A stretch of 64,000 nt of DNA, from assembly GCF_003790525.1 (NCBI RefSeq), contig NZ_CP033632.1. The stretch is one strand, 5' to 3'. Below, one piece after another: positions 45,454-48,827 of this stretch. The notes beneath the pieces are model-generated. The model was not told the origin of the DNA. It ran no database searches and was given only the letters and a program-made list of their open reading frames with translations. This DNA is from Escherichia coli (GTDB lineage: Bacteria > Pseudomonadota > Gammaproteobacteria > Enterobacterales > Enterobacteriaceae). A program made the position numbers and the translations under genes. Within the stretch, counting starts at the first letter, position 1; every line of letters begins with the position of its first letter.

Positions 45454-45470
45454 ATTGCTCTAATTGATTG
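45454..45470 (+). promoter_or_regulatory. C1-operator-like site (14/17 match)
   Basis: attgctctaattgattg read directly. Confidence 0.4.
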
Positions 45471-45526
45471 TTATAATTGAGCCGTGGCGTTAGTCAACTA
45501 CGAAGACGTGGCCATTACCTACTTAA

Positions 45527-45640
45527 CCAGTTCCGCCAGGGCAGCAGAGTAGGTTTCATCTCGGATGTACCATGCCTGCATGTTTTCCAGAGAAGCCCGC
45601 GAGGTTCCCGGACAGGACTCTGCCATTGCGATAGATTAAA
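45527..45640 (-). pseudogene. tnpA: Internal fragment of a Tn3-family transposase gene
   Basis: Encodes [35 protein letters not shown], aligning to ...[35 protein letters not shown]... of the tnpA at 49786..51606. Confidence 0.7.
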
Positions 45641-45674
45641 TGCAATAACCTAAAAGCGATAACGTGGTGGAAAA

Positions 45675-46312
45675 ATGTTCATCAGAGCTTATTTAAGGGC
45701 ATCAACGGAAGATCAGTTTGCCGATCGGGCAAAAGAGATGCTGGGGCAGTTTGTTCAGGAGCGGGGACATAAAATAGCCAGTTACTACCGGGAGAACATA
45801 AGCGGTACAAAACTCGACCGCCGGAACTGGGACGCTTACTGATGGACAGCCACCGCAATGATATTTTACTGGTCGAGCAAATTGACCGCCTGACCCGTCT
45901 GAGTAACAGTGACTGGATTACGCTGAAAAAGCAGATAGAACAACACGAACTGCGGATTGTCGCCTGGATGTATCCACCTCATGGCAGGCGCTGTCAGATA
46001 AAGACCCTTCGCAGGCTGACCCAATCACCCGCGCCGTGATAACCGCCATCAATAACATGCTTATCGACCTGATGGCCGCGATGTCGCATAAGGACTGGCT
46101 GAGCCGTCGCCAACGGCAACAACAGGGAATTGAACGGGCTCATACGCTGGGTAAATACCGGGGATAACAGGCCGATCAGGAACGGCATCAGAAAGTCCTG
46201 TACTACTGGCAGGTCAAGAAACTAAGTATCCATGAAACGGCAGATGCGACAGGGTACAGTCCTTCACAGATATGCCGCATTCAAGCCCTTTATAGAGAGC
46301 CTGAATCGGAAT
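45675..46312 (+). pseudogene. tnpR: Serine recombinase (resolvase/invertase) gene disrupted by frameshifts
   Basis: N-terminus MFIRAYLRASTEDQ...; the remainder is readable only by switching frame twice; HTH-like C-terminus. Confidence 0.7.
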
Positions 46313-46420
46313 AAAAAGTAGCCCAGGCGTTAATGGATTACCTTTCCAGGCTAAGCTCATTGCTCCTGTCAGATACGCAGCCCTGCCTGTAATAATACAG
46401 ACTGGGCAATGTGTTGCCAC

Positions 46421-46750
46421 TCAGGCTGACAACTGTCGGAGGATATCCGCTGTATTATAATGAGCCCGTTTTTCTATATATTTCCCGTCTTTCAGAGTGA
46501 TCATAAACATCAGAGAAAAGCGCACTTTCCTGCCGCTGGCAGGATGCCCAAGGAATTCACGGGTCTGCACGCCTTCAAAGATAAGATAGCAGGCGACTTT
46601 ATCGTCTCTGGCAAAGATTTCGTGGATACGCATTGTAAATCCCGGAAAAGCATCCATATGGCCTTTTTCCTGTACGATAAACTGCTCACTGTTCAGCGGT
46701 GTATCCACCTGATAATAGAATTTAAAATCCGGATGGCAGAGGTTTTTCAC
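46421..46750 (-). CDS. SnoaL/NTF2-like small protein, 109 aa
   Basis: Fold assignment by sequence impression only. Confidence 0.4.
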   Translation of the reverse strand: MKNLCHPDFKFYYQVDTPLNSEQFIVQEKGHMDAFPGFTMRIHEIFARDDKVACYLIFEGVQTREFLGHPASGRKVRFSLMFMITLKDGKYIEKRAHYNTADILRQLSA

Positions 46751-46830
46751 CTCATCATATTTATTTTCTTCAATCAGACGATAAAACTTTTTAACCGTTT
46801 TGATATTTTCTTAAACAGACATATTGCACC

Positions 46831-47820
46831 TCATTTTTCAGTTTCTTTACCTGCCGGAATATTGCCTTCCGGCGTTCCGTTAAATGTTTTTCGCCATTCA
46901 CTGGGACTGACTCCCATCCGCTGCCGGAATATCTGCCGGAAAGTAATGGTGGACTGAAAGCCTGCCAGTTCGGCAACCCGCTCCACTGCAATATCTGTAC
47001 TTTCCAGCAGTTCCTGACTCCGCCGGAGACGCTCTGTGGTGATCCACTCCCAGACCGTCATTCCTGTGGCCGAATGAAAATGGCGTGTAAGCGTTCTTCG
47101 GCTCATGGAGGCTAAATGGGCCAGAGTGTCAATATCATGTGGTAATCCCAGATTTGCGGACAGGTATTCCAGCAGCTGGTTTATGCGGTTATCGGACGTA
47201 CTTTTGGGAATAAGCAGTTGCCGGTACTGTGCCTGTCCGCCTTCCCGGTAAGGAGGAGCAACCATCCGGCGGGCTATTTGATTAGCCGTATATCTGCCCA
47301 GGCGTTGCCGGATCACATGGAGACAACAGTCCAGTGCTGCGGCTGTACCGGCTGAGGTGATAATCCGCTCGTCCTCAACATAAAGCACGTTCACGTCCAG
47401 ATGAACCGCCGGGAAAAGCATCTGGAAATCCCGTTCAGCCTCCCAGTGCGTGGCCGCCCGTTTACCATCCAGCAGACCGGTGTAAGCCAGAACAAAACTC
47501 CCCAGGCACAGGCCCACCACCTGAGCTCCATTTTTCCAGGCTGCAACCAGGGCACTGAGCAGAGTTTCAGAAGGCCTTTCATGGATGTGTTTCCAGAAAG
47601 GAATAATAACGATATCGGCCTCTGCCAGTGCATCAAGCCCGTATTCTGCCCTCATCGCCGTACCTTCAGCAGACCAGATAAGCCCGGGCTCTTCCGCACA
47701 TACCCGGCGGCTGAAGAGGGCCTTCCCTTCCAGTATCTCCCCGAACAGGATTAATGGAACGGAGACATGAAATGTACTGAACCCTTCGGTGATCACTATA
47801 GCGACAGTGATGGTGGACAT
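46831..47820 (-). CDS. AraC-family regulator with N-terminal DJ-1/PfpI-like domain (GlxA-type), 329 aa
   Basis: C-terminal AraC HTH region; N-terminal amidotransferase-like domain. Confidence 0.7.
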   Translation of the reverse strand: MSTITVAIVITEGFSTFHVSVPLILFGEILEGKALFSRRVCAEEPGLIWSAEGTAMRAEYGLDALAEADIVIIPFWKHIHERPSETLLSALVAAWKNGAQVVGLCLGSFVLAYTGLLDGKRAATHWEAERDFQMLFPAVHLDVNVLYVEDERIITSAGTAAALDCCLHVIRQRLGRYTANQIARRMVAPPYREGGQAQYRQLLIPKSTSDNRINQLLEYLSANLGLPHDIDTLAHLASMSRRTLTRHFHSATGMTVWEWITTERLRRSQELLESTDIAVERVAELAGFQSTITFRQIFRQRMGVSPSEWRKTFNGTPEGNIPAGKETEK

Positions 47821-47835
47821 GCCATGGCCTCCGGG

Positions 47836-48612
47836 TTAAATCGTAACTGATTCACCATCAGCAGGAGCGACAACTGACGCCTGGATCTGGTTATCGCGGG
47901 CATATTCCAGCAGTTCCTGACGGGTCAGCAGACAGTGGTTTACGGCCTCCATGTGCGTTGCCACAATCAGTGCCTCTGGTACGATACGATGGGCTTTCAG
48001 GACATCTTCCCTGCCGAAAATAATGGGGCCGAATCCGAGAACATGCGCCCAGCCCGTATTCATAATAACGACGCCAGGATTGAACCGACGTAAATTATCC
48101 TCTACAGCCTTGATCCAGATGGTATCCCCAACCAGATAGAGCGTTTTTTCGGACGGATGCTGGAAGACCACCCCACAGGCATCCCCAAGAATTGCTGCGA
48201 GTTGCGGGTTAGCATAGGCTTCGTCCGAACCATGCTGACAAACGGTTTTAATAAGTGAAATTTCGCCAAATGTGCTTTTGTCAGACAGAATAACAAGGTT
48301 GCTGAAGCCCTGGGAACGCAGGATCTTTTCATCATGTTCATTCTGAACATAAATCAGTTTATCTTTCGGGATGTGCGCAACAGCCGCTTCATCCCAGTGG
48401 TCAGGGTGTGTGTGGGTGACAATAATGGCATCCACATCCAGCAGTACATCAAGGTCAAAAGGCAGCTCAGTCATCGGGATGCGGATATCTGACCGGGCCG
48501 TTCCTTCGAATCCCGGATAGGCTTCTTTTTTCGCAAGCATCGGATCGACAAGAAATTTTTTACCAGCGTAAGAAATGAGTTGTGTGGCGTTACGTACCTG
48601 GATGATCTTCAT
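47836..48612 (-). CDS. Metallo-beta-lactamase-fold hydrolase, 258 aa
   Basis: HxHxDH motif (THTHPDHWD). Confidence 0.7.
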   Translation of the reverse strand: MKIIQVRNATQLISYAGKKFLVDPMLAKKEAYPGFEGTARSDIRIPMTELPFDLDVLLDVDAIIVTHTHPDHWDEAAVAHIPKDKLIYVQNEHDEKILRSQGFSNLVILSDKSTFGEISLIKTVCQHGSDEAYANPQLAAILGDACGVVFQHPSEKTLYLVGDTIWIKAVEDNLRRFNPGVVIMNTGWAHVLGFGPIIFGREDVLKAHRIVPEALIVATHMEAVNHCLLTRQELLEYARDNQIQASVVAPADGESVTI

Positions 48613-48827
48613 TTTAGCAAGTCCTGTATTGGTTAATAACCATCAGAGCCATATCATGATGGCCTAATGTGATAATTATGATTAAATCAGGCCTGCCTGC
48701 CACTGAAATAATGCCATATTTGGATGATATCAGGCCATTCTTCTGGCTCTCAGGTTTCAGGAATATGTCTGCTGAAAGCGGGTACAGATCTGACGCATTG
48801 AAGGGAAGTATCGTCCTTTAAGGCTTA

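Follow-up and report, generated by a model that had tools for sequence, protein, structure and literature searches.

A probable ref null allele and a probably orphaned C1 operator beside a Tn3-family relic in P1-like plasmids of Escherichia coli

The closest described counterpart of the locus considered here is the ref control region of phage P1 (Oref/P2ref, AF234172 nt 1957..1985), in which a C1 operator, Oref (formerly Op1/Op2a), overlaps the promoter P2ref. That Oref controls ref is taken from the annotated GenBank record AF234172 and from Ronayne et al. (2016), and loss of C1 is known to induce ref (PMC4713147). In the Ref protein an N-terminal segment of ~76 aa is needed for both DNA binding and in vivo effects (PMC4330346, PMC4713147): Ref ΔN76, the construct of the Cox laboratory (Gruenig/Gruber/Ronayne) from which residues 1-76 have been removed, does not bind DNA (PMC4330346) and in vivo causes no SOS induction, filamentation or killing (PMC4713147).

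Transposon insertions in this region have also been described. Venturini et al. (2019; PMC6906374) reported an insertion of the pJIE250-3 type between c8 and mat of P1-like plasmids, made up of five additional ORFs, a regulator and a resolvase among them, beside ATTG repeats at P1 1957..1982; the passages of that paper dealing with the insertion neither identify the ATTG cluster as Oref nor point out the 5′ truncation of ref. P7 (ref::Tn3, Tn2) and SJ46 (ref::Tn1721-like) are further P1-family elements with Tn3-family insertions in ref. Lastly, plasmid pEcFELIX724.1 (NZ_CP137706, 3105..9523 of our locus L006) has a transposon that retains its two inverted repeats, is flanked by a 5-bp target duplication (TATAG) and carries a tnpA that is frameshifted but of almost full length.

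How does our locus compare with these? The window, by which we mean the whole 64,000-nucleotide stretch of E. coli contig NZ_CP033632.1 (GCF_003790525.1) that was analysed, has a backbone colinear with P1 at nt 1..2026 and 2306/2313..3173 only. At 45454..45470 on the + strand it contains the site ATTGCTCTAATTGATTG, which matches the C1 operator consensus ATTGCTCTAATAAATTT at 14 of 17 positions, exactly as an earlier note on this DNA had counted, and which is identical at 17 of 17 positions to P1 Oref (AF234172 1962..1978) and lies, like it, between c8 and ref at the orthologous position. Judged by its sequence, then, this site is a bona fide C1 operator of P1 ref, and the annotation of Oref bears out the earlier note's statement that P1 ref is controlled by C1 from here. 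The operator is kept at the same place in the relatives P7, RCS47 and SJ46, and in pLH10-b-1-B with two changes. Three mismatches to the consensus are nothing unusual, as the annotated P1 operators Olpa and Oc1a have the same number and the annotated set ranges from one to seven. The window has six sites with three or fewer mismatches to the consensus versus 0.15 expected from shuffles, and five of the six are the annotated P1 operators Olpa, Oc1a, Oc1d, Oc1e and Oref. C1 binding and repression at Oref are predicted from the P1 annotation and the literature on the identical sequence, and the repressor gene c1 (41928..42779, - strand), 2.7 kb from the site, is intact and wild-type-like, its product differing at one residue (position 193) from that of P1 c1.100.

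A sigma-70 promoter (45449..45477, +; ATAACA, a 17-bp spacer and TATAAT with a TG extension) overlaps the operator and matches the annotated P2ref. The likeness to P1 thus comprises an identical 17-bp operator, a TATAAT -10 with TG extension, the same cognate repressor and a matching location 128-133 bp downstream of c8. The window differs from P1 in a 4-5-bp deletion directly 5′ of the site, where the -35 hexamer reads ATAACA in place of CTATCA and where the same deletion alters a published H-NS site from CGATAAA to AGATAAA, and in the detachment of the formerly controlled gene. Of the promoter P1ref there is a -35 remnant, TGGCCA (TTGCCA in P1; 45508..45513, +), its -10 being deleted. The ORF upstream of the operator (45015..45326, +), which the earlier note had placed at the position of cra, is c8, a putative lysogeny-establishment gene by P1 annotation and alignment; cra itself lies at 43704..43925, upstream of cre. 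On the far side of ref the operator Omat (49208..49225, -) is identical to that of P1, and mat (49379..49752, +) lacks its 3′ end, which another transposon has cut off at P1 nt 3173. This second element is marked by a Tn1721-type 38-bp inverted repeat (49753..49790, +) followed by a truncated tnpA (49786..51606, -), and it is not present in relatives having the same ref relic.

Between the operator and the gene beginning at 48828 lies a foreign segment of about 3.37 kb, as the earlier note had proposed, composed of a Tn3 relic and a cargo operon; it is not a plain insertion, however, since comparison with the c8-ref region of P1 shows that 286 bp are missing as well. The relic (45519..48892, 3,374 bp) stands in place of P1 nt 2027..2312, a stretch that in P1 holds ref codons 1-79 with their start codon, ribosome-binding site and leader hairpin, along with the -10 of P1ref. 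Sequence of P1 type runs up to 45518 (P1 nt 2026), and after 4 bp assignable to neither side (45519..45522) there follow an internal 105-bp tnpA fragment (45523..45627, -; a partial CDS according to PGAP) and a tnpR serine resolvase pseudogene (45675..46314, +) with three inactivating lesions: a single base is lost near 45820 and another near 45961, and a TAA stop stands in frame at 46165..46167. The res region 5′ of tnpR is reduced to 46 bp. The cargo genes, all on the - strand, encode a SnoaL-like 'ester cyclase' (46421..46750), a GlxA-family regulator with DJ-1/PfpI and AraC HTH domains (46831..47820) and an MBL-fold hydrolase (47836..48612), with promoter-like sites of their own at 48675..48753 (-). 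We considered and rejected the idea that this operon had come under Oref control, given its opposite orientation and its own promoter-like sites. The right end is formed by a 38-bp terminal inverted repeat (IR-R), GGGCTCCGTTTGGGAAACGGAAGATATTGTACGTTAAG (48855..48892, -), whose outer end abuts P1 nt 2313. The left inverted repeat is absent, and a search of the window for a second copy with up to three mismatches found none. Where an active Tn3-family element has two inverted repeats, an intact tnpA (DDE transposase) and a resolvase with res, this relic does not, and it is immobile. Could the 5′ part of ref have been moved by intramolecular transposition instead of lost? We rejected such an inversion or translocation because P1 2027..2305, sought elsewhere in the window, was not found.

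The transposon of pEcFELIX724.1 offers a view of what the relic may once have been. It has the same order of tnpR and SnoaL, GlxA and MBL genes at ~90% identity and the same IR-R with one mismatch, whereas the window copy is without left repeat, tnpA and res; what it has of tnpA shares only 73% identity with the gene in pEcFELIX724.1. TATAG flanks the pEcFELIX724.1 copy on both sides; in the window the left end at which a target-site duplication would be sought is deleted. The insertions in P7 and SJ46 are less alike, as both lie at the 3′ end of ref, after P1 nt 2615, where no more than the final few residues of Ref are exchanged and Oref stays linked to the gene. It is very likely that the pJIE250-3 insertion, as presented in the passages cited above, is the same segment as our relic: the four accessions named there (CP032890, CP019262, MG825383 and CP007393) all match it over its full length at 99-100%. 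The window departs from the pJIE250-3 type, so described, in also having the Tn1721-type element that cuts mat. The junctions seen here recur in 67 of 5,426 complete E. coli genomes and in 61 PLSDB plasmids, and this probable ref-null lineage makes up ~11% of Oref-carrying E. coli P1-like elements. The arrangement is common, and the inserted segment, to judge from the pJIE250-3 passages, has been on record since 2019.

What remains of ref is an ORF at 48828..49217 (+) that can start at TTG 48828 or at an in-frame ATG at 48831, 7 nt downstream of a weak AAGG. Its first 22 codons are transposon-derived, its start lies inside the terminal repeat, and Ref residues 80-186 begin at 48893. Since the ORF starts within the transposon end and the 5′ codons of ref are missing, the 'HNH gene' of the earlier note is a 5′-truncated ref. 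The remnant retains the whole RecA_dep_nuc domain (PF16786, E = 1.3e-51, profile positions 1-102 of 103), but Ref residues 1-79, a basic, unstructured N-terminal segment, are replaced by 22 unrelated codons, and the promoter(s), ribosome-binding site and start codon normally found downstream of Oref are missing; in PGAP's annotation the homologous feature is a pseudogene with the remark 'missing N-terminus'. A scan of the + strand at 48613-48830 gave no consensus promoter above threshold, and by eye we noted one sub-threshold extended -10-like motif, TGTGATAAT (48668..48676, +), ~150 nt 5′ of the remnant. The ORF is open in all four copies inspected, and some expression of a truncated protein from the ATG in the transposon end may be conceivable. 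The window remnant carries E144A and other copies carry A82T and H102P, all at residues that do not vary among the five intact Refs used for comparison; such substitutions would fit relaxed constraint, an anecdotal signal, and the copies are too similar for a selection test on the remnant's variation. The flank of the remnant is evidently recombining between backbones.

The nearest experimental parallel to the remnant is Ref ΔN76, which has nearly the same C-terminal nuclease domain (residues 77-186 versus 80-186), although the natural remnant differs from the construct in its 22 foreign N-terminal codons, in E144A and in having no known promoter. Because Ref without its first 76 residues is inert, Ref function has likely been lost here. 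We consider it highly probable that a genuine Oref/P2ref has been orphaned and that ref has become a null allele after a Tn3-family insertion and subsequent deletions. In the history we envisage, a transposon of ~6.4 kb with tnpA, tnpR and the SnoaL/GlxA/MBL cargo would have inserted at ref codon 79/80 of an ancestor; deletions would then have stripped it of its left repeat and of all but small parts of tnpA and res, P1 nt 2027..2312 next to it being lost too, and tnpR would have decayed afterwards, this order of insertion and deletions being the one we infer. In a lysogen C1 would still occupy Oref and repress P2ref. Upon induction P2ref would transcribe into the relic, reading the decayed tnpR in sense and the cargo in antisense, and its RNA would probably be stopped by Rho or by collision well before the remnant 3.4 kb away; any remnant protein translated from the transposon-end ATG should still be inert. 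With ref as a null allele, Oref/P2ref would be left as an orphan, and the likely net effect is that Ref is absent, not constitutive.

Three other readings have to be weighed against this account. One, which we think very unlikely, is that the remnant is still controlled by C1, so that after induction transcripts from P2ref would cross the relic and give the truncated core of Ref as a late side product. P2ref and Oref are indeed intact and directed at the remnant, and the + strand of the relic has a single weak terminator-like hairpin, but the transcript would have to cross 3.4 kb as a mostly untranslated RNA, because tnpR has premature stops, and would run head-on into the three-gene cargo operon, which faces the other way and has promoter-like sites of its own. 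Under such conditions Rho or a collision between polymerases would be expected to end transcription, and the product would be without the DNA-binding segment anyway. A reading that we consider about as unlikely is that a functional HNH/Ref gene was freed from C1 by the insertion and is unrepressed in the lysogen, which is essentially what the earlier note had suggested. It is true that operator and coding remainder are now 3.4 kb apart, that the RecA_dep_nuc domain is complete and that the ORF is open with an ATG. However, the deletion of the P1ref -10, ribosome-binding site, start codon and codons 1-79, the upstream region in which no consensus promoter was found, the PGAP pseudogene call and the inertness of Ref ΔN76, in DNA binding in vitro as well as in vivo, all argue otherwise; as codons 1-79 and the start signals are gone, the issue is loss of Ref and not loss of its repression. 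That the 14/17 match arose by chance and has no operator function can practically be dismissed: three mismatches to an AT-rich 17-bp consensus could occur in an AT-rich intergenic region, but the excess of such sites over the shuffles, their coincidence with annotated operators, the identity to P1 Oref at an orthologous position kept in relatives and the published induction of ref upon C1 loss leave little room for it.

What do these observations mean for P1-like elements? For basic biology their weight is low, as the P1 record already lists the operator, the segment has been in the literature since 2019 and NCBI's pipeline flags the remnant as a pseudogene. For annotation, ref should be scored as null, Oref as an orphan operator-promoter, and the HNH ORF should not be recorded as an unregulated nuclease gene. 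The few relatives that we looked at account for at least four independent insertions in ref, two different transposons having inserted after the same nucleotide, and published work has Ref cutting lysogenisation ~40-fold and sensitising lysogens to ciprofloxacin. One could speculate that ref is a preferred Tn3-family landing site in P1-like phage-plasmids and that Ref loss is positively selected, a proposal that we regard as unlikely; if true, the spread of ref-null elements may reflect better plasmid-like persistence under quinolone exposure. More remotely, the open Ref core may be expressed from the transposon end and serve some separate function. In P1 it is Ref that reportedly makes ciprofloxacin kill lysogens more effectively, and with ref null here, phage-antibiotic synergy is predicted to be absent for these plasmids.

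The C1 operator of ref, its promoter and the C1 repressor gene are all intact in the window, and the gene they once controlled lacks its 5′ end. By BLAST, nt 89000..94800 and then 1..2026 of phage P1 (AF234172) are colinear with 37697..45518 (97-99% identity), and P1 2306..3173 with 48886..49752 (98%); the colinearity of both flanks leads us to assign the region to a P1-like phage-plasmid with the order lpa-pacAB-c1-coi-lox-cra-cre-c8-(ref)-mat. The c1 gene (41928..42779, − strand) is intact and differs by a single residue from the thermosensitive P1 c1.100 allele. The ORF upstream of the operator (45015..45326), which the earlier note had put in the cra position, is c8 by P1 annotation; the true cra lies upstream of cre at 43704..43925.

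The 17-mer at 45454..45470 (ATTGCTCTAATTGATTG), previously noticed because it agrees with the C1 operator consensus (ATTGCTCTAATAAATTT) at 14 of 17 positions, is a real match: it is 17/17 identical to the annotated P1 operator of ref, Oref (P1 1962..1978), and its three mismatches to the consensus equal those of Olpa and Oc1a. Sites with up to three mismatches number six in the window relative to 0.15 expected from shuffles, and five of them coincide exactly with operators annotated in the P1 record: Olpa (38601), Oc1a (42874), Oc1d (43338), Oc1e (43421) and Oref (45454). The possibility that P1-family relatives have no operator at this position does not hold, because Oref is 17/17 conserved in P7, RCS47 and SJ46, and pLH10-b-1-B, which is more divergent, has it with two changes. 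We identify the site as Oref, one of the family of C1 operators of P1. A P2ref-type promoter (45449..45477; ATAACA-17-TATAAT with a TG extension), recognized by a scan and by the P1 annotation of P2ref, overlaps it. Directly upstream of Oref, a 4-5-bp deletion relative to P1 (45438..45453) alters the P2ref -35 hexamer from CTATCA to ATAACA and a reported H-NS site in the ref regulatory region from CGATAAA to AGATAAA. A further site that fits the consensus at 14 of 17 positions (TTTGCTCGTATAAATTT; 41115..41131, − strand) is inside pacB, where the P1 record has no operator annotated, and could be due to chance or be an unrecognised operator site.

P1-type sequence stops at 45518 (P1 2026) and restarts near 48893. 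BLAST places the restart at 48886 (P1 2306), but 48886..48892 is part of a 38-bp terminal inverted repeat, IR-R (48855..48892, − strand; GGGCTCCGTTTGGGAAACGGAAGATATTGTACGTTAAG), with the Tn3-family inner end ...ACGTTAAG. An element of pEcFELIX724.1 (NZ_CP137706; locus L006, 3105..9523), 90% identical, shares this repeat at one end, has a related repeat (GGGGTCAGTTTGG...ACGTTAAG) at the other and bears a 5-bp duplication, TATAG, on its two sides; its repeats and duplication therefore fix the outer end of the window repeat at 48892, and hence the right P1 junction at nt 2312/2313. The earlier description of a 3.3-kb insertion between operator and HNH gene was correct in that foreign DNA is there, but 286 P1 bases (2027..2312) have also been lost, replaced by 3,374 foreign bases (45519..48892), and a search throughout the window found no copy of the lost segment. 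The Tn3 relic and the cargo operon said to lie there are both present in 45519..48892: an internal 105-bp fragment of a Tn3-family tnpA (45523..45627, − strand; 73% identity to the pEcFELIX724.1 tnpA and 93% to a Klebsiella plasmid tnpA); just 46 bp left of the sequence that once separated tnpA from tnpR; a tnpR pseudogene (45675..46314) disrupted by two single-base deletions and by a TAA in frame (“frameshifted; internal stop” in PGAP); and, on the − strand, cargo genes for a SnoaL-like ester cyclase (46421..46750), a GlxA-family DJ-1/AraC regulator (46831..47820) and an MBL-fold hydrolase (47836..48612), with promoter-like sites at 48675..48753 in a promoter scan. We regard the inserted DNA as an immobile Tn3-family relic and not an active transposon, because the left repeat, transposase and res are missing and the resolvase is dead.

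P1 ref occupies P1 2077..2637 (186 codons by P1 annotation); upstream of it lie two promoters, P2ref (with Oref) and P1ref, as well as a GC hairpin with a T-run after it. The deletion takes out the P1ref -10, the hairpin, the RBS, the ATG and ref codons 1-79. The remaining ORF (48828..49217) begins at a TTG/ATG within the transposon end, with a stop codon directly upstream (48819..48821), and consists of 22 transposon-derived codons followed by Ref residues 80-186 with the single change E144A. The whole Pfam RecA_dep_nuc domain is kept, and where RefSeq has identical arrangements it annotates this ORF as a pseudogene (“Ref family protein; incomplete; missing N-terminus”). Reading the ORF as a truncated remnant fits the published biochemistry of P1 deltaN76 Ref, which lacks the N-terminal 76-residue DNA-binding segment and shows undetectable ssDNA and dsDNA binding (PMC4330346). 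A promoter scan of the + strand of 48613..48830 found none; by eye, an extended -10-like motif that falls below the scan threshold can be seen at 48668..48676, and the ATG has a weak AAGG 7 nt upstream, so that low-level expression of the remnant is possible. Substitutions in remnant copies at residues invariant among five intact Refs, E144A here, and A82T and H102P in three other plasmids, are what would be expected under relaxed constraint, though the numbers are small. Judged by its sequence, the ORF retains the Ref nuclease domain; its expression signals are gone, and so is the N-terminal feature by which a functional Ref is defined.

What, then, has become of C1 control? In a lysogen, C1 would still repress P2ref. 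On induction the P2ref transcript would enter the relic, in which it would be sense RNA for the dead tnpR and antisense RNA for the cargo operon, and would most likely end well short of the ref remnant, and the lineage would be phenotypically ref-null. The suggestion that C1 may no longer control the HNH gene is right insofar as operator and gene are physically uncoupled, but with the 5′ end gone there is no functional gene to deregulate.

The exact left junction occurs in 67 of 5,426 complete E. coli genomes; 65 carry 80% or more of the arrangement (4.1 kb), and 558 have an intact P1-type Oref-ref 5′ region; from the 67 and the 558, the relic is in ~11% of E. coli elements with Oref. The left junction is also in 61 PLSDB plasmids, and the arrangement in none of 22 matching phage records. 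The relic is almost invariant between plasmids, with one SNP in 3.4 kb separating it from that of p12579_1, and the ref/mat flank next to it (ref remnant and mat leader) differs by 2-3% (45400..49300 compared with loci L002 and L003), which suggests a single ancestral event followed by homologous exchange among P1-like backbones across the locus. On the non-P1 resistance plasmid pSF10EC-2 (IncFIB, NZ_CP079766; 6945..10580 of locus L005), the cargo genes, ref remnant and mat adjoin IS26, ISVsa3 and floR, and IS26 cuts off the left part. Venturini et al. (2019; PMC6906374) described what is very likely this segment in pJIE250-3: five additional ORFs, among them a regulator and a resolvase, that lie between c8 and mat and adjoin ATTG repeats at P1 1957..1982; by position these repeats correspond to the Oref/P2ref sequence. 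The four relatives named there (CP032890, CP019262, MG825383 and CP007393) are all among the best matches to the window arrangement. All components had been annotated or published already; the earlier observation is accurate and its interpretation over-generous.

The sole mildly interesting by-product is the recurrence of Tn3-family insertions in P1-family elements, five independent ones within ~1 kb of ref/mat. Tn3 in P7 (repeat at L008 1220..1257) and a Tn1721-like element in SJ46 (L010 2715..2752) each lie directly after P1 nt 2615, at ref codon 180; Tn21 in pHI1B-o111 (L011 3770..3807) follows nt 2199, at codon 41; the relic's element sits at nt 2312/2313 (48855..48892); and a Tn1721-type end cuts mat in the window at nt 3173 (49753..49790). 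The last comprises a perfect Tn1721-type 38-bp repeat and then a 606-aa C-terminal tnpA fragment (49753..51606); it is a later, window-specific gain, because pFG92-1-109kb and p12579_1 share the ref relic with mat intact, and it probably forms the border of a resistance region. A perfect Tn21 repeat is at 55970..56007. The otherwise intact-looking ref of pLH10-b-1-B (L007 452..964), annotated as 170 aa, ends ...LLNKS, 16 residues short of P1 Ref, and may be another C-terminally altered allele. In the P1 phage family, ref/mat has the look of a hot spot for Tn3-family elements; taken with published work in which Ref is costly to lysogens, this suggests the idea that loss of ref could be selected.
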